Shown: positions 1,981 through 64,000 of the stretch, piece after piece
Position numbering within the stretch: the first letter of the stretch is position 1
How the letters are laid out: each line of letters starts with the position of its first letter
Assembly (NCBI GenBank): GCA_964475835.1
Contig: CAYYYL010000012.1
Span: 14,201-78,200 of the forward strand
Origin: an uncultured Verrucomicrobiota bacterium
GTDB taxonomy: Bacteria > Verrucomicrobiota > Verrucomicrobiia > JABWAM01
DNA length: 64,000 nt
Reading direction: 5' to 3'
Notes under the pieces: model-generated
The model's input: the letters and a program-made list of their open reading frames with translations, nothing else
Database searches by the model: none
What the model was told of the DNA's origin: nothing
Made by a program: the position numbers and the translations under genes

Positions 1981-1993
1981 GCGACCAAAGAAG

Positions 1994-2150
1994 TTGAGAG
2001 ATGAGGGTTGAGAGTTGAGAGAAGGCTTTCCGTGGCACCCTTCAAGGATAAGAGGTTCATGAACGACACCCTCCACTGAATTGTTCCCATATCAGCCATT
2101 CCAGTCGCAAAAGCATTCCATACTCTCAACTCTCAGCGCTCAACTCTCAA
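1994..2150. repeat. 28-nt inverted repeat built from four tandem heptamers (TTGAGAG-type arm 1994..2021; CTCTCAA-type arm 2123..2150), 101-nt spacer
   Basis: The reverse complement of 1994..2021 (ctctcaactctcaaccctcatctctcaa) matches 2123..2150 (ctctcaactctcagcgctcaactctcaa) at 25 of 28 positions by manual alignment. An extra partial copy lies at 2164..2169. Confidence 0.85.
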
Positions 2151-2159
2151 CTGTGTTTT

Positions 2160-2906
2160 TCAACTCTCATCACGTTTCCACTGCATCTTGGAAATAGGGG
2201 CGGTAACCTCCCCAGTGGCACGCCGGGCGAAATTTTTGGCGGTGGTGAAACGCTCGTTGTCAGCCCGGATTCGGCTTCCGAGAAACCGGTTCATCGAAAT
2301 TAAGAATCGTGAGGCCACATCTGGATTCTTCTCCACAATGCTCTCCAACCCCTTCTTGCTGAGCTTTAACAAGGTACAATCCTTGTTTGCAGTCACATCA
2401 GCGGAACGAGGCCCTTCATCCAGCAAGGCAAGCTCCCCAAAAAAATCACCCACGGAAAGCACCGCGATCATATCCTCCTTTCCGGAATTGACCACTGAGA
2501 CCCGAGCCTCCCCCTCCAGTATCAAGTACATCGAGTCCCCATGCTCCCCCTGCTTGACGATGGACGTATAAGCCCTGACCTTCACCTTTTCCACCAGTCC
2601 CAAAAACTGGTCGATGTGCGCATCCGTCATGTCCGCAAAAAGACGGATCCGACGAAGCTGGCCTGCCTTCAAACCCGCCCCCGGAGCCGAAGCGTGAAGT
2701 TTAGAGGTATCACTCAATGCAAGCAGCGACTTGATCGCTTCAACCCCCTCCGCTCGTGTCCAGGAATCCGATCCCTCATGGTACACCCATGTTTGCGGAG
2801 ATAGATGCCGGTCCGTTGCCCATTCCTGCAACAACTTCGTATCCGCCGGGCCATAGGTGTGACGGTCGTCGGCAAAAACAAAATATTTTTCAGGCGATTC
2901 AGACAC
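2160..2906 (-). CDS. GYF_2 (DUF4339)-like N-terminal domain plus cyclic-nucleotide-binding domain protein
   Basis: N-terminus YFVFADDRHTYGPADTKLLQEWATDRHLSPQTWVYHEGSDSWTRAEGV has a GYF_2-like pattern. C-terminus GDSMYLILEGEARV...GDFFGELALLDEGPRSADVTA is the canonical cNMP-binding (FGE.AL...RSA) motif. Confidence 0.8.
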   Translation of the reverse strand: MSESPEKYFVFADDRHTYGPADTKLLQEWATDRHLSPQTWVYHEGSDSWTRAEGVEAIKSLLALSDTSKLHASAPGAGLKAGQLRRIRLFADMTDAHIDQFLGLVEKVKVRAYTSIVKQGEHGDSMYLILEGEARVSVVNSGKEDMIAVLSVGDFFGELALLDEGPRSADVTANKDCTLLKLSKKGLESIVEKNPDVASRFLISMNRFLGSRIRADNERFTTAKNFARRATGEVTAPISKMQWKRDES

Positions 2907-53506: not shown

Positions 53507-55675
53507 TTAGTTCGAGCGTGCAGGAGCCTTGCCTTGGGCACTTGCGAGAGCTCCACCCTTTTGATCGGGGGCCTCACCGCCAGCCTGGGCGTCACGCTCC
53601 GCCATGGCCGCTTTACGGCTCAGACGGACGCGCCCCTTCTCATCCACACCGATGCACTTGACCCACATATCCTCACCAATTTTACACACGTCCTCAACCT
53701 TGTTGACGCGCATGTTGGCCAGTTCGGAAATGTGAACCATGCCATCGCGGCCCGGCATCACTTCCACGAAACAGCCGAAGTCCTTGATGCTCACCACACG
53801 ACCCCGATAGGTCTTGCCGACCTCGATATCGCCTGCGATTCCTTCGATGAAGGACGCCGCCTTGTCGATGGCCTCCTGACTCGAGCTGTAAATTTTCACC
53901 TCACCGGAGTCGTCGATTGAAATCTCGGCACCGGTTTCCTCCTGAATCTTGCGGATCATCTTGCCACCAGGCCCGATGACGGCGCCGATCTTGTCCGGAT
54001 TGATGCGCACCAGCTTGACTTTCGGAGCGTAAGCCGAGAGCTGGGAACGGGGCTGGGAAATAACCTGGTCCATCACATCTAGGATCTGCATCCGAGCCTG
54101 TCGTGCGGCGGCAATCGCCTCCTTCATGAGAGGGAACGGAAGACCCGCGAGCTTGAGATCGAGCTGGAATCCCGTGATGCCTGCGCGCGTACCGGCAACC
54201 TTGAAATCCATGTCGCCGAAGGCGTCTTCAGTTCCAAGAATATCCGTCAGAAGCACCGCACGCTCATCCTCTTTCACCAATCCAATGGAAATCCCGGCCA
54301 CGGGCGCCTTCATCGGCACACCGGCATCGAGCATGGCAAGCGTTCCCCCGCAAATGGAGGCCATGGAGGTCGAACCATTCGATTCCATGATTTCAGAGCT
54401 CAGACGAATCGTGTACGGGAACTCGGGGCCCTTCGGAACCATTGGCTCAATGGAGCGCTCTGCAAGCGCACCATGCCCGATTTCACGACGGCCGGGCGAA
54501 CCGAAACGTCCGGTCTCGTTCACACTGAACGGAGGAAAGTTATAGTGCAGGATGAAACTCTTGGAATTTTCACCGCCACCGTAATTGTCCATCTCCTGGG
54601 TGTCCTCAGGGGAGCCAAGGGTGGCCAACACCACCGTCTGAGTCTCACCTCGCTGGAACATTGCGGAACCGTGCGAACGGGGAAGGAAGCCCACCTCGCC
54701 GGAAAGGGCACGAAGCTGGTTGGTGGCACGGCCATCGCAACGTTTGCCCTGGTTGATGATCGAATCACGAATGGCCCGCTTTTGGATGTATTCAAAGGCC
54801 TGCCCGATTTCAAACGGTGTGATGTCGGGATATTTCGGCGTCAGGGTGGCGATCACCTCGTCACGAAGAGCGGAAACCTGGCCTTCACGGTCAAGTTTGC
54901 TGGGCGTCATGAGAGCCGGAACGATCCGCTCCCCAATGAGCGCGCGCGCCTCCTCAAGAATGCTTTCGCGGGGAAGACGCAACACCGGGGTGCGCTTCGC
55001 TTTTCCAGCCTGCTGGGCGAGTTCGCGCTGCATCGCCACCATCTGCTTCACATGCGTGTGCGCAAATTCCATGGCGCGATAAAAATCGTCCTCGGTGATT
55101 TCATCCGAAGCGCCTTCGATCATGAGAATGTCGTTCTCGGTGCCGACGTAGACGAGGTCGAGCGTGCTGTCGAGCATCTCAGAGTGCGTGGGATTCACCA
55201 CAAACTGATCGTGAATCCGGCCCACGCGCACCGCACCGATGGGTCCGTTCCACGGAATGTCGGAAACCATCATGGCCGCGGAAGCGCCATTGATGGTGAG
55301 GATATCGGGATCAATCTCGCCATCCGCGGAAAGAAGAATGCCAATTACCTGGGTTTCATTCATGAAGCCCTTGGGGAAGAGCGTCCGGAGGGGACGATCA
55401 ATCATGCGACTGGTCAAAATTTCCTTTTCAGTGGGACGACCTTCACGTTTGAAGTAACCGCCCGGAAATTTTCCGGCGGCAGCAGCTTTCTCACGATAGT
55501 CCACGGTGAGAGGAAACCAATCCTTGTCGGTGGGCTTGGTGGCGGCTACGGCGGTAACGACCACGATGGTGTCGCCGGAACGAACCGTCACCGAACCATC
55601 CGCCTGCTTGGCAAAACGACCGGTTTCGATGGTGATATCACGCTGACCGATAAGGCGGGAGATGGATGTAGGCAT
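53507..55675 (-). CDS. pnp: polyribonucleotide nucleotidyltransferase (PNPase)
   Basis: 722 aa. Two RNase PH domains ([35 protein letters not shown]), a KH domain ([25 protein letters not shown]) and an S1 domain ([25 protein letters not shown]). Confidence 0.95.
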
Positions 55676-55730
55676 AGATCTTGGGTGCGACAGCCGAACC
55701 CTTTGCCCACGGACACCGGCAGGAGAACAT

Positions 55731-55761
55731 CACGAAACCCAGATCCGTTTCGGGTTGCGTG
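55731..55761 (-). promoter_or_regulatory. hairpin in the rpsO-pnp intergenic region (candidate pnp leader/processing stem)
   Basis: cacgaaaccc / gggttgcgtg form a 10-bp stem (one mismatch) with an 11-nt loop, ~55 nt upstream of the pnp ATG. The position is analogous to the E. coli pnp leader hairpin. Confidence 0.35.
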
Positions 55762-55805
55762 ATGTGCTCGTGCCTCAAGACCGTGGAAAACGAACCGGCT
55801 GACGC

Positions 55806-56069
55806 TTACTTTCTTAGGTTGAGTTTTTTGATAAGCTTCTGATAGCGGGAGGAATCGGTGCGGTTGAGATAGTCCAACAGCGTCCGGCGCTGGCTGACCA
55901 TGCGAAGCAGACCACGGCGCGAGCTGTGATCTTTAAGATTCTTCTGCAAATGGCCCGTCAACTCGTTGATGTGCTCGGTCAACAAAGCAATCTGCACATC
56001 GGCAGAGCCCGTATCACGGTCATGCAACTGATATTCCTTCGCTACCTGCTTTTTAGTTTTTGCTTCCAT
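55806..56069 (-). CDS. rpsO: 30S ribosomal protein S15
   Basis: 87 aa. [43 protein letters not shown] is the canonical S15 pattern. Confidence 0.95.
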
Positions 56070-56080
56070 ACTTGCTTCAC

Positions 56081-56108
56081 GAAAACCCCTGCCGACTACA
56101 CGTCGGGG
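56081..56108 (-). promoter_or_regulatory. GC-rich hairpin plus U-tract in the rpsO 5' leader (attenuator/autoregulatory candidate, or terminator of upstream transcription)
   Basis: The minus strand reads ccccgacgtgtagtcggcagggg followed by ttttc, ending 11 nt before the rpsO ATG. A TTGCTT-17-TATGAT promoter-like site lies upstream at 56127..56155. Confidence 0.35.
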
Positions 56109-56266
56109 AATTCACGTGGGATGGAGATCATATGGAAGAAGACCGGCAGAAGCAAGCGGCATTTTTTAACGGCCTCTGCCAACGTCGAGGGAAACAAAAA
56201 AACGAGTGATTGGGGCAATTCAATTTTTAACCCCCTTTGCTCTGTCTTCGCTATGCAAACCAAGGC

Positions 56267-56358
56267 ATACCTCCCCCAAGCCCCTCCTTTGCAGGAGGGG
56301 AGAAGATAACCTGGGGCAGATGCCCCCCCTCCTGCAAAGGAGGGGCTGAGGGAGGTAT
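56267..56358. repeat. 33/34-nt imperfect inverted repeat with nested self-complementary cores, 25-nt spacer
   Basis: Left arm 56267..56300 (atacctcccccaagcccctcctttgcaggagggg). Right arm 56326..56358 (cccctcctgcaaaggaggggctgagggaggtat). The inner 22 nt are perfectly complementary. Each 20-nt core (cccctcc-6 nt-ggagggg) is itself a hairpin. Confidence 0.85.
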
Positions 56359-56376
56359 ATCCGAAAACACTGGATC

Positions 56377-56571
56377 CTATACAACATCCAAAAAATGATA
56401 GAATACGCACGACCACCAAAAATCAAACATCGACAAAAGCCCAAAGGCGACTCCCTCGACAAAAAGTGCAAGACCCAGTCCACGGGAAATATAAGACGAG
56501 GATCTATAGAACCGCCGGCACAACACGAATACACACGCAGCCCAGATCAAGGTAAGAATGGTGGGAATCAT
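56377..56571 (-). CDS. possible small two-TM membrane protein (64 aa)
   Basis: MIPTILTLIWAACVFVLCRRF...GLGLALFVEGVAFGLLSMFDFWW. Supported only by hydrophobicity. It lies in a 757-nt gap between the cyclase and rpsO. Confidence 0.25.
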   Translation of the reverse strand: MIPTILTLIWAACVFVLCRRFYRSSSYISRGLGLALFVEGVAFGLLSMFDFWWSCVFYHFLDVV

Positions 56572-56826
56572 GACCTCGTACGGATGTCCGTGAAGGCACG
56601 GAAAACCGAAAGCCGGGATAAAAGAGCCTGCAAAACAAGGGGTGACAGGCGGATCCCCGTCTTGTACGCCCCACGGGGCAGGCAAAGCGAGAGCACAGCG
56701 GCAATGCTACCTGAAGTCGCTCCGATCCTGAACAATGTAGAATACCCGTTCATCTTCTTCCAATTAAAAACACATTGGAATCGCTTTCATTATAATGATT
56801 TAAACATTGTAATCGTAAACATACGA

Positions 56827-59280
56827 TTAATGCTTGGTCTGACGCACAAACTCCCCTTTCCATGAATCGGGAGGGGGATGAACCATAAACTCCTGAACGC
56901 GGTGAAGGAAAACAAAGGCTGGGGCGTCCTTGGGAAATTCCTTTAAAATATCGGCAAACGCGTCATGAGCCTGAGTCCATTGACGTTCCCAATAGAGTTT
57001 GATGGCATTTGAAAAGGATTCTGCCAAGCGAACATCCTCGGGCTTTGTCATCCAGCGCGGTTTCATCAACTCGTAAACCAATTCAGGCTCGGTCTTTCCT
57101 TGAACGACAATTTTATCCAGAGGGCGCGCTAGGACTTCATCCTTAGCGAGGTCGTATGTGGCCTTTCCAATCAGAATACGAACCCCATAATCCTTGGCCG
57201 CAGGCTCAAGACGCGCAGCAAGGTTCACCTCATCCCCCATTACCGTGTACTCGTATCGGGCCTTCGAACCCATCATTCCCACGGAAACCGTCCCGGAGTT
57301 CAACCCCATGCGAACCTTGAGCCCAACCCGATATTTTTTTTGAAAATGATCCCGGATCTCATCAATCACCGCCTGTTGTTCCAATGCCGATAGACAGGCC
57401 TGAACCGCATGATCGGACTGTCGATCTGGAACCCCCCAGACCGCCATGATCCCATCTCCGGCGAACTTATTGAGATAACCGTCGCGTTTCAAAATCAGAT
57501 CTGCCATCGGTGTCAGGTAATCGTTTAACACCTGACTCAATTGCTCGGGTTCCAATTTTTCTGAAATCGTTGTGAAACCGGCAACGTCCGAAAAAAACAT
57601 GGTCGCCTCCGCACGCTGTCCGCTCAGGGACTCAGGATGTTCCTCCATGAATCGAAGCACTCGCGGCGACACCATGGCTGAAAACTTTTTACGAATGGCC
57701 ACCCTCTCCTTTTGCTCGGTATTGTAGCGGTAGAGGTAAATGAATCCGAAGGCCCACATCACCGACACCCCCGGCAGCACCATGGGAATCGATATCTGGA
57801 AGAAGAAGAGAAGGAATGGCGCCACCTGGGTCGCCCCCAAAAGCCAGAGTTCCGCAAAGGCTGAAAAGCGCGGATCGGTAAATGCATTCAACACCCACAT
57901 CACCAGCATCAAACCGAGGATGTACACCGCCGTTCCCATCGGGGACATCACATGCAAAAAACTCTGTCGCAGAATATTATCGATCGCCGTCATGTGAATG
58001 AAGACCAGGGGCGTGTTCGAATCCACCGCGCAGGGTCCGATATCGCTCGCCCCGGTGAACGTCAAACCCGCAAGGACAATCCGATCCGAAACCATATCCC
58101 GCAATGCCTCCGCCTTTTGAATCCCCCGCCTGACTTCCGGATCGCTGGCAAGGGACGGATCCTTTTCGACTTTGGAAACAAAACTGTCTCCTTTCAGCAA
58201 ATCGATATACGAAAACTGCCGGAAATCATGAATGGTCCCCTCAAAATTCAGGGTCATATTCCCATATCGATCAATCGGGATGCGCCAGGTCTTCCCTCCC
58301 CGATGCAACGCAATCTCCTTTCCAAACACGATGGAGAGATCTTCCCTTGCACGCCCCCTTTCCAGGCTGGACAGGTCGATCCCCAACTTCAACAAGCACG
58401 ACTGGAGGGAAAACGATGGAAGAAAAATCAGGGATCCATTCCCCTTCGGATCCCGAAACGCCATGACCAGGGGGATTTTTCGGACATTTCCATCGCTGTC
58501 GCGAGGCACATTCACAAACCCCAGATGAACCGGTCCTGAAGGGAGCGGGTCGAACGGAAGAACCCCACTATCCGCCACTGCAACATCCTGTGGAATTTGT
58601 TCCAGGCATTCCGGAGGTATCTCCCTGTTCCTTAAATGAGCGATTCGCTCATCATCCCGGCCGGAAACCCAGGGCGTGGCGTGGTCGTGATCCTTCGACG
58701 TTAGGGTGAACGCCGTCACCAAATTAAGCCCGGTGCTCCCACTCTCCCGCGCATCCTGCAAAGCGTAGATCTGATTCCCCAGATTTCCATTTCCAGCCGC
58801 ATCAACCAGATTCAAAAATTCCGCCGATGGGAAAAGCTCCTCATGCACGATTTGAGACAGGGGCTTGTTGTGTTGCTTGAGAAAACGGTCCACCGCATTT
58901 TCATCGGAAACCCTTTCAGACCTGTTTGGAATCAGAAGGACATCGAGGGCAAAAACGGAGGGCTTGTAGTAGAACGCCATCGGCCTCAGTGCCTCCGTCC
59001 AGTTTTCCCGTGTCAGCCAGCGTCCCACCCCCCACCGGTCGGAAAACTCCGAATACCGTGGATCAATCGAATCCTGATCCACCGCCGCAAGAACCACCTG
59101 ATCGGAAACATGAATCCTGTTCCACTTTTGTCGCAGGGCATGACGCACCCGAAACCGTACATCCACCGTGGTCTCCTCCATCGACTGTGCCCAGTTCAAC
59201 ACACTGGCAACCAACGCCACGCACCCGATCGATCCGCAAATCAACAACAAGGCCAGAATGGAGCTTTTTCTGCCAGACAT
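56827..59280 (-). CDS. CHASE2 sensor domain-containing class III adenylate/guanylate cyclase
   Basis: N-terminal TM, a large periplasmic CHASE2-like region, a cluster of TM helices, then FFSDVAGFTTISEKL...FAGDGIMAVWG.P...GLNSG...G...R.EYTVMGDEVNLAARLE (cyclase homology domain) and a C-terminal helical tail. Confidence 0.85.
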   Translation of the reverse strand: MSGRKSSILALLLICGSIGCVALVASVLNWAQSMEETTVDVRFRVRHALRQKWNRIHVSDQVVLAAVDQDSIDPRYSEFSDRWGVGRWLTRENWTEALRPMAFYYKPSVFALDVLLIPNRSERVSDENAVDRFLKQHNKPLSQIVHEELFPSAEFLNLVDAAGNGNLGNQIYALQDARESGSTGLNLVTAFTLTSKDHDHATPWVSGRDDERIAHLRNREIPPECLEQIPQDVAVADSGVLPFDPLPSGPVHLGFVNVPRDSDGNVRKIPLVMAFRDPKGNGSLIFLPSFSLQSCLLKLGIDLSSLERGRAREDLSIVFGKEIALHRGGKTWRIPIDRYGNMTLNFEGTIHDFRQFSYIDLLKGDSFVSKVEKDPSLASDPEVRRGIQKAEALRDMVSDRIVLAGLTFTGASDIGPCAVDSNTPLVFIHMTAIDNILRQSFLHVMSPMGTAVYILGLMLVMWVLNAFTDPRFSAFAELWLLGATQVAPFLLFFFQISIPMVLPGVSVMWAFGFIYLYRYNTEQKERVAIRKKFSAMVSPRVLRFMEEHPESLSGQRAEATMFFSDVAGFTTISEKLEPEQLSQVLNDYLTPMADLILKRDGYLNKFAGDGIMAVWGVPDRQSDHAVQACLSALEQQAVIDEIRDHFQKKYRVGLKVRMGLNSGTVSVGMMGSKARYEYTVMGDEVNLAARLEPAAKDYGVRILIGKATYDLAKDEVLARPLDKIVVQGKTEPELVYELMKPRWMTKPEDVRLAESFSNAIKLYWERQWTQAHDAFADILKEFPKDAPAFVFLHRVQEFMVHPPPDSWKGEFVRQTKH

Positions 59281-59371
59281 CGGCGCGACACTATCACTTC
59301 AGCCGCGATATGTGAAATGAAGAAAACAGCAGGTAATGGCCCAGTTTGAGTGGGACGTAGATTGTGGAAAT

Positions 59372-59399
59372 GGAGGGCGACGCTCTGTCGTCGCCCTCC
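59372..59399. repeat. perfect 11-bp-stem palindrome
   Basis: ggagggcgacg (59372..59382) - ctctgt - cgtcgccctcc (59389..59399). Confidence 0.85.
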
Positions 59400-59436
59400 A
59401 GAAAGCTGAATGAGGACACTAAAGCGAAGGAAGGGT

Positions 59437-59528
59437 TGTCATCCTGAGGCGAAGCCGAAGGATCTCTCCGCTCCGCCATCACGCAGAGAGATTCTTCGCC
59501 TTCGCCTACGCTCAGGCTCAGAATGACA
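59437..59528. repeat. imperfect inverted repeat (32-nt and 43-nt arms)
   Basis: Left arm tgtcatcctgaggcgaagccgaaggatctctc. The reverse complement of the right arm is tgtcattctgagcctgagcgtaggcgaaggcgaagaatctctc. The two differ by 3 mismatches plus an 11-nt insertion. The loop is 17 nt. Confidence 0.75.
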
Positions 59529-59586
59529 GAAATTGGTAGTGGCTCCGTTTGAAATTATTTTTAAGTCGTGACTAAAACCAGGGACT

Positions 59587-59623
59587 GGTAGCAGGTCCGG
59601 GCGCAGGGACGCGCCCGGCTACC
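59587..59623. repeat. GC-rich hairpin ~40 nt downstream of the caspase-like gene
   Basis: ccgggcgc (59597..59604) / gcgcccgg (59611..59618) with an outer ggtag/ctacc stem. No adjacent U-tract, so terminator function is uncertain. Confidence 0.7.
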
Positions 59624-59660
59624 TTTATCTGGCTACGCAAAAGACCTTGGACGTTAGCAA

Positions 59661-60467
59661 CTATTCTACCCCAGATCGCGTGGGATGCTGCACTTTCGCC
59701 TGACGCACTTGTTCATCATATCGGTCCCTCTGTCTCAAGATCCCGTTCCAGAACTCCTCCAGATCCATGATCCCCCGGGGTGGCGTCCTCAACGCCGCTT
59801 GGAGCCCCATCAACCCAAAAAAACTCATCCCTGGAGGATCCCACCCCCAGTGGCCGCGAAGCCATTCCCGACCGGGTCTGGCGAAATCCTCCAGACCTGC
59901 AGGCCCCCTCGCAAAATCAACATCCACAGCCTCCTCCGACGCCGCACTGGCATAAAACCGGCTCACATTCCCGCAAAACTCCCCTCCAAATTCCAGCGCG
60001 GCGGCGTGGCAACTGTCGTTTACCAACAGAACCCTGGCATATCGCTCGGCAACCTGATTCACGGCGTTTACCAGTCGATCAGGAGGGAGGTCCTCACCCT
60101 CTGAAAACTTCAGGCGTCCATCCCGTTTTTGATGCGTCGCCAGGTAGAGGATCAGACAGGTGTTCGTGGAATACGGTTTCAGTTGCTGCATCCACTGCAG
60201 AAAATCACCGCTCGATCCATTCGACCACTCATGAACCCGCGCCTGGGAATCCATCTGCCGGATGGTGCGCTGAAGCAGAAGACATGTGTTGGTCGTCAGC
60301 GGAAGATCGCTCACCCAGTCAAAACGGGTACAAACCGCCGAGGCAAACTCGAGAGGAACGCCATTCCCATGTTCCTCCGCCATCCCAGCGAATGCAGAAA
60401 ATAGAAAACCGCACAGACAAAAGGAAAGTCTTCTCATTCCCGGGAAAACACGGGGAGCACTTCCCAT
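59661..60467 (-). CDS. secreted caspase/CHAT-like (clan CD-like) protein
   Basis: Signal-like RRLSFCLCGFLFSAFAG. A hydrophobic strand plus His (CLILYLATHQKRDG) and a hydrophobic strand plus Cys (RVLLVNDSCHAAAL) occur in caspase-fold order and spacing (~50 aa). The start overlaps the upstream stop (TGATG at 60469..60465). Confidence 0.55.
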   Translation of the reverse strand: MGSAPRVFPGMRRLSFCLCGFLFSAFAGMAEEHGNGVPLEFASAVCTRFDWVSDLPLTTNTCLLLQRTIRQMDSQARVHEWSNGSSGDFLQWMQQLKPYSTNTCLILYLATHQKRDGRLKFSEGEDLPPDRLVNAVNQVAERYARVLLVNDSCHAAALEFGGEFCGNVSRFYASAASEEAVDVDFARGPAGLEDFARPGREWLRGHWGWDPPGMSFFGLMGLQAALRTPPRGIMDLEEFWNGILRQRDRYDEQVRQAKVQHPTRSGVE

Positions 60468-61531
60468 CAGCGGGGAATCATCGTCGGGCGGGAAGCCCCG
60501 GGATCCATGTTCCGACGAAACGTGTCGCGAATGACATCGCGATTGAACAACTCCTTCCGGCGAGCCGTTGCCGCCCCGGCCCGACGATCGAGCTCACGTT
60601 CCAACTGCTCGATCTCACCCCCGGTCAAGCCCTGCGCCTTTGCCTTCTCCAACATCAGCTTCGCCTCCCCCTCGTTTTCGGCAAGGTCGAGATATTCGGA
60701 CAGAAGCTTGGACAGTTTCGCATCCCCGGACACATCATGCGCTTCCCCTCCATCCAGGATGTAACCTTTGCCCCCATGGACTTTCACCGCCACTTGATCC
60801 GCCCCGCTGTCCCGCTCCTGCGCCACACGAACAGCCTTGTCACTTGGAATCTCAAACTGGTTCTTCTCACTCCCAAAAGCTGCTTCCAATGATCCCCCTT
60901 TTGCGGTCAGCCGCGCATAAGAATTCTCCTTACCCGGCTCCACCGTGGCGCTCAACGACTGTCCTTTTTGGATTTTCGGAATCTTGAAACTTCCATCCTG
61001 AGTGGACTCGGCAAAAATGGTTCCTTTGTCGCACTGAAAGGTATTTTGAAGACCCCCATCATATTCGACTTCAAATTGAGTCCCCACGGCGCCACAGACT
61101 GCGGTCGGCGTCTGCACCTTGAACTGGTGGTTTTCGGGGAATTTGTCGAGCTGCGCATCCACCTTCCCCTTCGTCAGTTTGAGATCCACCACTTTTCTGA
61201 AACCACCACTCATACTGGTTGTACGAATCTCCACCTCGGTTTTTGGCAACAGTCGAAATCGATTATTCTCATCAAACGCCACCGTAAACATCGATTCAGA
61301 TCCTGTCCTTCCCGACGTTCCGGATTTTTCAACCGCCCCCTTTACCGCCGGTTTCCATCCCGGTTCTCCGCTGGATCGAACCTCACAGACGTTTCCTGAA
61401 ATTTTGTCGATCGTGAAGGTTTCGAAGGGCTCCGCAAACACACCCGGGACCAGACAACAACACCCGATCAAACCAAACGAAAGGAATTTAAACCGTGTGG
61501 AAAACATGAAACCTTTGGGAAAGAAAATCAC
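60467..61531 (-). CDS. FecR-domain secreted protein with C-terminal coiled-coil region
   Basis: Signal-like FKFLSFGLIGCCCLVPGVFA. G.V.V......W..AVKGA......RTG..S...V.F....FRLLP.T.V.I and FKVQTPTAVCGAVGTQFEV match the FecR (PF04773-type) pattern. Confidence 0.65.
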   Translation of the reverse strand: MIFFPKGFMFSTRFKFLSFGLIGCCCLVPGVFAEPFETFTIDKISGNVCEVRSSGEPGWKPAVKGAVEKSGTSGRTGSESMFTVAFDENNRFRLLPKTEVEIRTTSMSGGFRKVVDLKLTKGKVDAQLDKFPENHQFKVQTPTAVCGAVGTQFEVEYDGGLQNTFQCDKGTIFAESTQDGSFKIPKIQKGQSLSATVEPGKENSYARLTAKGGSLEAAFGSEKNQFEIPSDKAVRVAQERDSGADQVAVKVHGGKGYILDGGEAHDVSGDAKLSKLLSEYLDLAENEGEAKLMLEKAKAQGLTGGEIEQLERELDRRAGAATARRKELFNRDVIRDTFRRNMDPGASRPTMIPR

Positions 61532-61537
61532 TCCAGA

Positions 61538-62500
61538 CTAGAATGCAATATCACAACTCAATCGCAACGTGTACGCGGAGAAGCTTTCGTACCCTTCCTG
61601 GGAATCAAAACCAAGCTTCAGGCCCAGTTGATCCGTCGGGTAATAACTGAGGCGGGGCCCGATGTCGTAATAGTCGTCATCGCGGGGCGCAATTCCAAAG
61701 AAGGTGTCCTGCAACACATAGTTGTAGTAGGAGAAAGCTGCCCCCAAGGTCCATTTCTTCGAGATATCATAACTTAAAGTTCCTCCCCAACCAAATCGAC
61801 CCGTCTGGATGGTTTGCCTAAAGTCATAGTCGTCATTCACATAACCGAAGGACGTGGTGGTGGACCATCCCCACTTTCCCCGTTTGTCGCTGATCCCCGC
61901 AAGGAGGGTATAGCCATCCGAACTTCGATCAAGATTACTCTTTACGGCCCGAGTGAGCCGGTGCTCGGCCTCCCCATGATTGTAGGAAAGGCCCAGGTTT
62001 AAAATGTTAAACAGACGTTTCGCAAAGTAGAGGGAAACACCATCGGAATCGAGATGTTCGCTGACTCCGATTTCATTGGAAGCTTCGCGATGGGAGTGCT
62101 GGTAAAGCAGACCGGCAATCAAACCGTCATAAATATCGGCATCAAACGCCAGGTCTCCACTCAATTCATTTCCCCCAAACCCACCAAATGTGGAATCGTG
62201 GGTGGCACGATAGGAAAAACCCGGAACAAGAACGGGACTGCGAAATTGCAACCCCTTGGATCGTTCGGAACGGGAGGTAACACTTTGAAACGCCCCTGCC
62301 ACGGAGTTCATCTGTCCAAAAGCCGTGTTATTCATCGGTTGAACAACTGAAGCCTCCTGGTCTTCAACATACGCCTGGGTCTGACTCACCAATGTGAACA
62401 AATTCGCGGCACCGAAGGAAAGAAGAAGAACCCGTTGATTTGAAACAAACATCAGAACAAGCGACAGAAGGGAAAGCAGAACGACTTTGAAACGCTTCAT
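61538..62500 (-). CDS. outer-membrane beta-barrel protein (autotransporter-beta-domain-like)
   Basis: Signal peptide FKVVLLSLLSLVLMFVS, alternating beta-strand pattern with aromatic girdle residues, C-terminus LRLSCDIAF. Confidence 0.6.
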   Translation of the reverse strand: MKRFKVVLLSLLSLVLMFVSNQRVLLLSFGAANLFTLVSQTQAYVEDQEASVVQPMNNTAFGQMNSVAGAFQSVTSRSERSKGLQFRSPVLVPGFSYRATHDSTFGGFGGNELSGDLAFDADIYDGLIAGLLYQHSHREASNEIGVSEHLDSDGVSLYFAKRLFNILNLGLSYNHGEAEHRLTRAVKSNLDRSSDGYTLLAGISDKRGKWGWSTTTSFGYVNDDYDFRQTIQTGRFGWGGTLSYDISKKWTLGAAFSYYNYVLQDTFFGIAPRDDDYYDIGPRLSYYPTDQLGLKLGFDSQEGYESFSAYTLRLSCDIAF

Positions 62501-62602
62501 GAATCGGAGCTTAGGAAAAAAAACGGCCGAATCAATTCCTTTTTCTCAGTCCTTTTAATATTCAAGTTCTCTACGAGATTGGGGCGCGTAGGATCCTTCG
62601 GC

Positions 62603-62683
62603 TGTAGCGGCGCTCTACGAGCGTCGACCGGCGGTCACTCGCCTCGCCGAAGCCTCCGGCGTAGCGCGGGCAGACCGCCGCTG
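62603..62683 (+). repeat. 81-nt GC-rich structured dispersed element, copy 2
   Basis: See copy 1 (43022..43102). This copy has a 10-bp terminal stem, tgtagcggcg / cgccgctgca (one T-G pair). Confidence 0.85.
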
Positions 62684-62747
62684 CAACCCCATCGTTAAAA
62701 CACTTCCAACCGTTGTTACTTCTTCAACAACCTGTTAAACACCCTTC

Positions 62748-64000
62748 ATGCGTGAGAACTTACGAAAGAGCATCGTTTTTGCGCTTTCTGCACTCGCGTT
62801 CCTCGCTCCCCTTAAATTCACCCAGATCGTTCAACTCGATTCCCTCACCCCCTGGCCCCACGGACTGGAATGGCTCACCCATCTCTGGCCCAGTTCCGCG
62901 TTCTATGCCATCCATCTTCTTCTCCTTGGTCTTTCTATTCCGCTTTGGAAGCAGTCCCTCCCCACCCGCCGAATGCCCATTGGACTCGCTTGGGTTTTCC
63001 TCCTCATCCAAATTCTCGCCACGCTCGGAAGCATGAACCGGGCCGCCAGTTTTCATGTTCTCGAGTTTTTTTTCTCCATAACCGTCGCGTTTACACTCGG
63101 ACAGATCGCCATTCAAACACACGAGGATCTCGAGTGGATCACGTTCGCCTGGGTGGCCGCCACCGTGGTGACCGTCTGGCTGGGCTGGCTTCAAGTGACC
63201 GGGGGACGGGAGCAAGCACTGATCCAGCTGCTGCATCAACCCGATTTGATCACTCAAAATCCTCTCATCCGGGACTGGGCCGAGAGTGATCGCATTTATG
63301 CCGCATTCGTCACACCCAATGCGCTAGCGGGCTATCTGGTCGCCGCACTCTGCATCCTGCCCGCATGGCTGTTCCTCAACACCTCTCCCGGCGCCAAGAA
63401 ACCCGTCCTTACCCTCAGCTTCCTCGTCCTTCTGGCTCTTGCCGTGCTTTTTTGCCTCTGGCGCACCCAATCCAAATCGGGATTCCTGATCCTGGTCATC
63501 ACCTCCCTTCTCGCTGCTTTCCTTCTGTCGGCAACGCGCCGACGTGCAATCATGGCCATGGGAGTCCTCATCGTCGCAGCCCTCCTCCTCTTCGCGCTCG
63601 GCTACATGCGCCCCGCCGGACCTGGAAGGGTTCCCCGAAATCTTCTCGATCAACTCGACATCGCCCCGCACAAACGACAACCCGCGCTCGAACGTGGCGC
63701 CCAAAGCCTGCACACGCGCCTGGCATTCTGGAATGCAGCCCTCAAAATCACCCGCGACCATCCCCTTCTGGGAAGCGGTCCGGGTACCTTCGGAATTCTT
63801 TACCCAAACTATAAAAAGCCTGAGGACCTAAGCACGCGCCTCGTCCACAACAGCTACCTTCAAATGGCCACCGAAAGCGGAGTCCCGGGGTTCTGCAGCT
63901 ATCTCGCCTGGTTTGGAGGCGCCCTCTGGATGGGGTGGCGGCGCATCCGACAGACAAGGAACGCCGTCTCCACGCTCCTCTGGTGCGCCTGTTTCAGTTT
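62748..64000 (+). CDS. O-antigen ligase (Wzy_C) family membrane protein; C-terminus beyond the right edge
   Basis: Absent from the ORF track because it is open at the window edge. Manual translation from ATG 62748 gives MRENLRKSIVFALSALAFLAPLKF... with no stop through 64000. It is polytopic and contains WRTQSKSGFLILV and LVHNSYLQMATESGVPG, typical of the O-antigen ligase/Wzy_C region. Confidence 0.75.
   Translation, partial: MRENLRKSIVFALSALAFLAPLKFTQIVQLDSLTPWPHGLEWLTHLWPSSAFYAIHLLLLGLSIPLWKQSLPTRRMPIGLAWVFLLIQILATLGSMNRAASFHVLEFFFSITVAFTLGQIAIQTHEDLEWITFAWVAATVVTVWLGWLQVTGGREQALIQLLHQPDLITQNPLIRDWAESDRIYAAFVTPNALAGYLVAALCILPAWLFLNTSPGAKKPVLTLSFLVLLALAVLFCLWRTQSKSGFLILVITSLLAAFLLSATRRRAIMAMGVLIVAALLLFALGYMRPAGPGRVPRNLLDQLDIAPHKRQPALERGAQSLHTRLAFWNAALKITRDHPLLGSGPGTFGILYPNYKKPEDLSTRLVHNSYLQMATESGVPGFCSYLAWFGGALWMGWRRIRQTRNAVSTLLWCACFS

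Follow-up and report, generated by a model that had tools for sequence, protein, structure and literature searches.

We analyzed a stretch of 64,000 nucleotides from an uncultured Verrucomicrobiota bacterium (GenBank assembly GCA_964475835.1, contig CAYYYL010000012.1; hereafter the window), in which four neighboring genes encode a predicted outer-membrane β-barrel protein, a FecR-domain protein, a peptidase-like protein with a caspase-type fold and a nucleotide cyclase with a CHASE2 sensor domain (Table 1). An earlier reading of this DNA, made from the letters alone (the sequence-only reading), had described a run of four minus-strand genes here, and the six-frame open reading frame (ORF) list bears out this run together with its junctions. 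The barrel gene ends in TAG 6 nucleotides (nt) before the GTG start of the FecR gene, which has an in-frame ATG 24 nt inside that start, and the TGA of the FecR gene and the ATG of the peptidase gene have one base in common (TGATG at 60469-60465). The spacer ahead of the cyclase gene measures exactly 380 nt, and the palindromes noticed in it correspond to three strong hairpins. Signal-like N-termini had been proposed for the barrel, the FecR protein and the peptidase. Assessed by eye from the sequences and ortholog alignments, each of the three begins with a basic and then a hydrophobic stretch, and all three proteins are plausibly extracytoplasmic.

Table 1. Features of the gene cluster and its immediate surroundings in the window (nucleotide positions count from the first base of the window).
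Feature	Position	Strand	Details
Wzy_C (O-antigen-ligase-like) membrane protein gene	62748-64000, runs off window	+	Wzy_C E 1.7e-19
Outer-membrane barrel gene	61538-62500	-	320 aa, ORF list
FecR-domain protein gene	60467-61531	-	354 aa, ORF list
C13-like peptidase gene	59661-60467	-	268 aa, ORF list
Structured spacer	59281-59660	-	non-coding, 380 nt
CHASE2 adenylate cyclase gene	56827-59280	-	817 aa, ORF list

To assess how widely this gene set recurs, we gathered loci through homologues of the peptidase and the barrel, and assigned their ORFs by phmmer with the four window proteins and from ORF lists. Collapsing duplicates left 11 distinct loci, nine of them informative for the barrel and ten for the cyclase; wherever an organism is given, it is a Verrucomicrobiota metagenome-assembled genome (MAG). 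The FecR and peptidase genes adjoin one another at all loci (11/11) and the barrel gene adjoins them at every informative locus (9/9), while the CHASE2 cyclase gene lies directly downstream on the same strand at six of ten. The barrel, FecR and peptidase genes therefore form the core of the cluster, with the cyclase as a frequent partner. Of the conserved module proposed in the sequence-only reading, the adjacency of the trio thus stands and the fixed four-gene unit does not.

The order barrel-FecR-peptidase-cyclase is found in the window and at L005, L006, L011 and L019, and in the window the FecR and CHASE2 genes are on the same strand, one gene apart. At L001 all four genes are present in a permuted order, FecR-barrel-peptidase-cyclase. 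Elsewhere the barrel-FecR-peptidase run is followed by a formate/nitrite transporter gene (L002), a convergent gene (L009) or a gene for a retropepsin-like protease with ankyrin repeats (L022), and a FecR-peptidase pair is followed by a convergent gene (L010) or the end of the contig (L017). The L022 gene (10270-11889) occupies the position of the CHASE2 cyclase and encodes a 539-residue aspartic protease. At L010 the peptidase gene is split into two ORFs (1328-1684 and 1775-2173), which could reflect a frameshift, a pseudogene or an assembly error.

In total, the gene set recurs in at least seven other distinct lineages, with protein identities of about 40-70%. The flanking genes differ at L001, L006, L011, L019 and L022, and the window and L005 have rpsO, pnp, polyprenyl synthase and phytoene desaturase genes in common downstream. 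The varied flanks, together with the permuted locus that nonetheless keeps all four genes, argue for selection on the set rather than leftover synteny. On the other side of the cluster, a divergent Wzy_C gene stands upstream of the barrel gene at five of nine loci informative for it (the window, L002, L005, L006 and L022) and is a possible associated gene; a PAP2 gene lies beside it at L006 and L022.

The protein that the sequence-only reading called caspase/CHAT-like has no Pfam or NCBIfam assignment. Its AlphaFold model (five sequences) is an alpha/beta sandwich of mean predicted local distance difference test score (pLDDT) 76 and predicted template modeling score (pTM) 0.76, and the best 50 Foldseek matches to this model in the PDB are all members of clan CD, including PIGK, caspases, MALT1 and legumains. 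These matches have E-values of 1e-7 to 1e-5 and TM-scores of about 0.55 and are led by PIGK (7wld_K, E 9.6e-8), and the identity of the window protein to characterised clan-CD enzymes is 8-17%. PIGK is also its only sequence match in the PDB, a weak one (phmmer E 0.33), in which H112 is paired with the His of 'MTGHGG' and C153 with the Cys of 'IDTCQGA'; we take these residues to be the catalytic His164 and Cys206 of human PIGK. A profile of 41 family sequences retrieved nothing meaningful from the PDB. All 41 sequences of that alignment have Cys153 and Asp151, and at least 90% of them retain His112. The catalytic His and Cys of clan-CD enzymes directly follow β-strands, and in the model the putative catalytic His112 comes directly after strand 104-110 and Cys153, within the motif D151-x-C153, after strand 145-150.

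The model and the retained residues mark this protein as a predicted secreted clan-CD peptidase, C13-like (GPI8/legumain) and belonging to a rare, undescribed family. The caspase-type fold named in the sequence-only reading has thus held, and an assignment to CHAT or C14 has not. Both CHAT (PF12770) and Peptidase_C14 (PF00656) were rejected for the window protein, with no match at E<=1, and neither is among the best 25 of the 26 families that match the 41 relatives at E<=0.01. Peptidase_C13 (PF01650) likewise has no match to the window protein at E<=1, and it appears below threshold in three of the 41 relatives at E of about 6e-4, with P0018 reaching 20 bits against a cut-off of 22.8. Like members of peptidase family C13 (legumain, GPI8/PIGK), the window peptidase combines the predicted fold with a His and a Cys after consecutive strands and a D-x-C motif (as 'IDTC'); PIGK and legumain are much larger, whereas the window peptidase is bacterial, predicted to be periplasmic and below the Pfam C13 threshold.

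Few homologues of the peptidase exist in the collections searched: four were found by a word-indexed search of 5.8 billion proteins and 46 by an exhaustive search of 1.84 billion representatives, and scans with the peptidase profile located four loci in genomes and two in metagenomes. Given so few homologues and loci, we consider the family truly rare. Its distant members are varied in build. Four of them (P0028, P0031, P0033 and P0036; 560-660 residues) have an N-terminal peptidase domain, a transglutaminase-like Transglut_core2 domain and TPR repeats, and others of about 260 residues and about 24% identity (L012, L013, L014 and L015) lie in Planctomycete-like contexts. At these last four loci the peptidase gene is preceded by an uncharacterised gene of 141-187 codons, and at L012 and L013 a divergent gene for a giant WD40-repeat protein lies upstream.

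Profile searches agree with the sequence-only reading on the cyclase and on the FecR-domain protein. The cyclase contains CHASE2 (PF05226, residues 22-461, E 6.6e-31, 108.2 bits against a cut-off of 26.3) and Guanylate_cyc (PF00211, residues 557-733, E 3.6e-27, 95.6 bits), both above threshold. Hydrophobic stretches read from the translation lie at about residues 6-28 and, three in number, at about 445-520 ahead of the cyclase domain, giving the order N-terminal transmembrane segment, CHASE2, three transmembrane segments, class IIIb domain and short helical tail. The closest solved catalytic domain is that of P. aeruginosa CyaB (3r5g, E 1e-34), and the motifs FFSDvaGF, nKFaGDG and eYTvmGdeVNLAaRLE, which match in this alignment, contain all three catalytic pairs: two Asp for metal binding, Lys and Thr for the substrate, and Asn and Arg for the transition state. 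A Lys and Thr pair is ATP-specific and typical of class IIIb cyclases. From these motifs we read the protein as a complete, probably active class IIIb adenylate cyclase with a predicted periplasmic CHASE2 sensor. A tblastn search of plasmids with the CHASE2 domain gave no match.

No Crp-type regulator adjoins the gene cluster. At 54 kb from the cyclase gene, a minus-strand gene (window 2160-2906) encodes a 248-residue protein with GYF_2 and a cyclic-nucleotide-binding domain (E 5.6e-23), a candidate receptor for cyclic AMP (cAMP). Near it, at window 1992-2152, lies an inverted repeat with 30-nt arms that are 90% complementary and 101 nt apart, made of GAGAG/TTGAG-rich units.

The FecR protein exceeds the gathering score of PF04773 (39.2 bits, cut-off 24; E 9.8e-10; residues 75-160). 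A signal-like N-terminus precedes its FecR beta-domain, which covers about residues 75-160, and the C-terminal third is helical. Eight aligned orthologues have the signal-like N-terminus in common, keep the core VQTPTAVCGAVGT.F.V and PGKENS, and terminate in a conserved R-P-(T/P)-x-I-P-R tail (window 60467-60500). A lipobox Cys is not conserved among them, and a lipoprotein assignment was rejected because the 'LIGC' of the window protein is not kept in the orthologues. A sequence search of the PDB with this protein gave no match. Its best NCBIfam similarity, confined to the FecR-domain region, is to LipL45 and Lsa33 of Leptospira, which are described as membrane lipoproteins or surface adhesins and enter here by their NCBIfam names only; a literature search for CHASE2 with Leptospira found nothing relevant. 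The protein was likewise rejected as a FecR anti-sigma factor: it reaches 12.8 bits with the FecR equivalog NF007296, for which the cut-off is 385, and it has no anti-sigma domain.

For the barrel protein, the sequence-only call of an outer-membrane β-barrel is supported by the structure model. The AlphaFold model (pLDDT 81) has a helix at residues 59-76 followed by 12 strands at 90-319, and Foldseek matches it best to autotransporter translocator domains, those of NalP, EstA, EspP, Hbp and BrkA (E 3e-12 to 3e-8; TM-score up to 0.71, and 0.6-0.7 to NalP). The C-terminal residue is Phe, typical of outer-membrane proteins. Sequence searches gave no Pfam match for the window protein and no match in the PDB, and PF03797 is carried by three of 22 barrel homologues. 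There is no passenger domain, with at most about 35 semi-conserved residues from signal peptide to helix. The protein is accordingly modeled as a 12-strand β-barrel of the autotransporter type that has a helix at its N-terminus and practically no passenger; it resembles the type Va autotransporters (NalP, EstA, EspP) in its 12-strand barrel after an α-helix and differs from them in that theirs follows an exported N-terminal passenger. Paralogues of the barrel occur as two extra tandem copies upstream of the cluster at L005 (2-1048 and 1061-2098) and as a stand-alone gene beside an ATP-binding cassette transporter at L007 (2363-3286), in the same MAG as L001.

The spacer between the peptidase and cyclase genes contains one GC-rich hairpin, one imperfect hairpin with 25-nt arms (59447-59507) and one perfect hairpin of 12 bp (59371-59400), and its predicted RNA fold has an energy of -139.6 kcal/mol (z = -4.4 against shuffles). 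It holds no T-tract terminator; promoter and terminator scans of the region returned matches no more often than shuffled expectation, and an Rfam scan of 55500-64000 gave nothing above threshold. The corresponding gaps at other loci are 176 nt (L001), about 48 nt (L005), 15 nt (L006), 41 nt (L011) and 64 nt (L019), so the 380-nt spacer is peculiar to the window genome and not a feature of the family. The spacer could represent an inserted element, or else a leader that regulates the cyclase. The window has no copy of the long hairpin arm beyond that hairpin's own two arms on opposite strands, and a degenerate version of the hairpin pattern has no match among 18 collected loci, which leaves an origin from a repeat or a miniature inverted-repeat transposable element unsupported.

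Beyond the cyclase stop, a non-coding gap of 757 nt (56070-56826) reaches to rpsO, against about 107 nt at L005. An inverted repeat with 27-nt arms (56274-56300 and 56326-56352, 93% complementary) lies in this gap, with only sub-threshold, microRNA-like Rfam matches. The same gap holds a candidate small protein gene on the minus strand (about 56377-56570, within ORF 56377-56685), whose product would have two hydrophobic segments, 'MIPTILTLIWAACVFVLC...GLGLALFVEGVAFGLLSMF...'.

Several known systems resemble parts of this cluster. In the E. coli FecA-FecR-FecI system, a FecR-type periplasmic domain is encoded beside an outer-membrane barrel and takes part in a relay across the envelope; the FecR periplasmic domain contacts FecA, and regulated proteolysis belongs to the signaling. 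That system, however, has a TonB-dependent transducer, an extracytoplasmic function sigma factor, and an anti-sigma domain with a transmembrane segment, and the window system has none of these. A canonical FecIRA system was accordingly rejected for the window, where the neighbors of the FecR gene are the barrel, peptidase and cyclase genes.

Other loci, in several groups of bacteria, pair FecR-domain genes with genes for CHASE2 sensors. In Burkholderiales and P. aeruginosa, a gene for a LysM-FecR protein adjoins a CHASE2 histidine kinase gene; in the Burkholderia 'BiofilmReg' operon and in pairs of the P. aeruginosa PA4035/36 type, the gene for the secreted FecR protein is directly upstream of the CHASE2 sensor gene with tiny gaps, but the output there is a histidine kinase and response regulator, the FecR protein has LysM, and a DUF4136 accessory gene is present (PMC5192318). 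In Campylobacterota, a CHASE2 cyclase is clustered with a phosphodiesterase, an outer-membrane protein that has a FecR domain, and a TPR protein, and a shared pathway was proposed by the authors from the clustering alone (PMC9239204). That cluster is like ours in its CHASE2 cyclase and FecR-domain envelope protein, and differs in having the phosphodiesterase and TPR protein instead of a cysteine peptidase and an autotransporter-type barrel.

The chromosomal locus of S. meliloti comprises clr, cyaD1, smc02177 (FecR domain) and smc02178 (periplasmic, with no predicted fold) (PMC5498481), and in this species a proteinaceous signal, ribosomal protein uL2, depends on NsrA, a barrel protein of the outer membrane, to reach CHASE2 cyclases (PMC7529298, PMC13001267). 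A CHASE2 cyclase, a FecR-domain gene and a gene for a periplasmic protein share one locus there, much as in the window, and an outer-membrane barrel acts upstream. The parts differ in kind: NsrA is large, with its barrel portion given as residues 600-1200, whereas the window barrel has 320 residues and is of the autotransporter type; the S. meliloti locus encodes the Crp-type Clr, and the window cluster encodes no such regulator; and SMc02178, which has no assigned fold, can be set beside the window peptidase by description only. In cyanobacteria, metacaspase domains are fused to CHASE2 (PMC3501461, PMC2853523), and caspase-...-CHASE2 proteins have been described (PMC8195603). These proteins are the only links of a caspase-fold domain to a CHASE2 sensor in the literature found, and their caspase domain is of family C14, fused and cytoplasmic, hence an output, while the window peptidase is a separate, C13-like protein that is predicted to be secreted and to act on the sensor side.

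The sequence-only reading had suggested FecR and CHAT genes as recurrent neighbors of CHASE2 genes in spirochaetes and cyanobacteria. An association of FecR with CHASE2 genes is published for Burkholderiales and P. aeruginosa (PMC5192318), Campylobacterota (PMC9239204) and S. meliloti (PMC5498481); for CHAT genes, a literature search for CHAT with CHASE2 found no paper linking them.

Starting from the folds, the retained catalytic residues of peptidase and cyclase, and a conserved gene set that is tightly spaced on one strand, we infer export, physical contacts, a substrate for the peptidase and a direction of information flow. Our leading interpretation, held tentatively and at slightly less than even confidence, is a Verrucomicrobiota-specific envelope sensory module built around the widespread FecR-CHASE2 pairing, in which a peptidase-processed state is converted to cAMP. 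In this model the outer membrane would house the passenger-less autotransporter-type barrel, the periplasm would receive the exported FecR-domain protein and C13-like peptidase, and the CHASE2 cyclase would cross the inner membrane so that its sensor domain faces the periplasm. The FecR-domain protein could then serve as the periplasmic partner of CHASE2, as a co-receptor or tethered ligand, and bridge to the barrel as FecR does to FecA. The peptidase would cut the barrel in its short N-terminal segment or else cut the FecR-domain protein, so that a surface or envelope cue might produce an irreversible change in CHASE2 occupancy and hence cAMP synthesis. The requirement for NsrA in S. meliloti offers a precedent for outer-membrane relay to CHASE2 cyclases and supports this interpretation. 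A more specific proposal, which we consider unlikely as it stands, makes the C13-like enzyme itself the CHASE2 switch: as a periplasmic peptidase or transamidase, it would cleave the FecR protein or re-attach it at the barrel, possibly via the C-terminal tail, and CHASE2 would read the processed state.

Four sets of observations weigh against the sensory module. The cyclase is missing from the cluster at four of the ten informative loci (L002, L009, L010 and L022), and the trio can therefore be encoded without it. The distant peptidase relatives at L012, L013, L014 and L015 have neither FecR nor CHASE2 neighbors. Transcription of the window cyclase could be uncoupled from that of the trio by the structured spacer of 380 nt. 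Finally, S. meliloti is the only FecR-CHASE2 system that has been tested, and its FecR-domain neighbor is dispensable for perception: smc02177 and smc02178 are induced by cAMP/Clr and required for a downstream phenotype, but are not needed to perceive the tested plant signal (PMC5498481). These genetics point to a role in output or feedback rather than gating.

Some of these observations lend themselves to the main alternative, a real though clearly lesser possibility, in which the trio works autonomously in the envelope or serves as an output, modifies or displays a surface component and is regulated by cAMP from the neighboring cyclase or co-regulated with it. In a concrete version, a GPI8-like transamidase or maturation protease would act on the FecR protein with its conserved tail, the barrel would anchor or expose that protein, and the Wzy_C protein would supply or handle a glycolipid. 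The trio is complete without the cyclase at the four loci just named, and the divergent Wzy_C gene occurs roughly as often as the cyclase; by sequence and by structure, the peptidase is matched best by PIGK, a subunit of the glycosylphosphatidylinositol (GPI) transamidase, the FecR orthologues share the R-P-T-x-I-P-R tail, and LipL45 and Lsa33 bring to mind proteins of the Leptospira surface. The S. meliloti genes, as Clr/cAMP targets needed for a phenotype and not for perception, fit an output as well (PMC5498481). Against this, no gene is found downstream of the trio more often than the cyclase, which in six lineages follows closely on the same strand, and the adjacency of FecR and CHASE2 genes across phyla, with either kinase or cyclase outputs, is more in keeping with a partnership on the sensor side. 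The Wzy_C adjacency is perhaps inherited synteny among related genomes.

A third possibility, which we find improbable, makes the caspase-fold protein a scaffold or pseudo-enzyme without catalysis, whose part would be to bridge the FecR protein and the barrel with no proteolysis. Such a role would suit a window protein that has no Pfam peptidase match, 8-17% identity to characterised clan-CD enzymes and a model of moderate confidence (pLDDT 76), but the conservation of Cys153, Asp151 and His112 across 41 diverse members is not expected of a dead enzyme, and His112 and Cys153 both follow predicted strands directly and align with the PIGK motifs. Equally doubtful is an explanation of the gene order by synteny that one clade has inherited, with no functional coupling and the cyclase an independent sensor: although all loci come from one phylum, the window and L005 have downstream genes in common and the structured spacer precedes the window cyclase, the proteins are just 40-50% identical between most loci, the flanks differ at five of them, the permuted L001 keeps all four genes, and FecR and CHASE2 are paired in unrelated phyla as well (PMC5192318, PMC9239204).

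At the level of gene neighborhoods, the association of FecR-domain genes with CHASE2 sensors is already known. What is new here is the obligate trio of a passenger-less autotransporter-type barrel, a FecR protein and a rare C13-like peptidase, which a CHASE2 cyclase joins in most lineages. To our knowledge, the recurrent FecR neighbor of CHASE2 has been noted several times and never explained, and we know of no established mechanism of CHASE2 activation. CHASE2 is a widespread bacterial sensor domain without a defined ligand according to the Pfam description (quoted in PMC5192318), and the cluster offers a testable handle on its activation. It contributes two parts that can be put to the test, an enzyme with an obvious point mutation (Cys153) and an outer-membrane barrel, so that the hypothesis of a proteolytic relay becomes concrete and testable in a heterologous host.

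The reach of these findings is limited, as the peptidase family is tiny and its carriers are so far all uncultivated. Within these bounds, the analysis delineates a bacterial branch of the legumain/GPI8 peptidases that is very rare, and a family of passenger-less autotransporter-type barrels in Verrucomicrobiota. Should the peptidase indeed prove to be the switch, CHASE2 would sense a proteolytically generated protein ligand rather than a small molecule, and the Verrucomicrobiota cluster would represent the first bacterial envelope signaling pathway driven by a C13-type enzyme.

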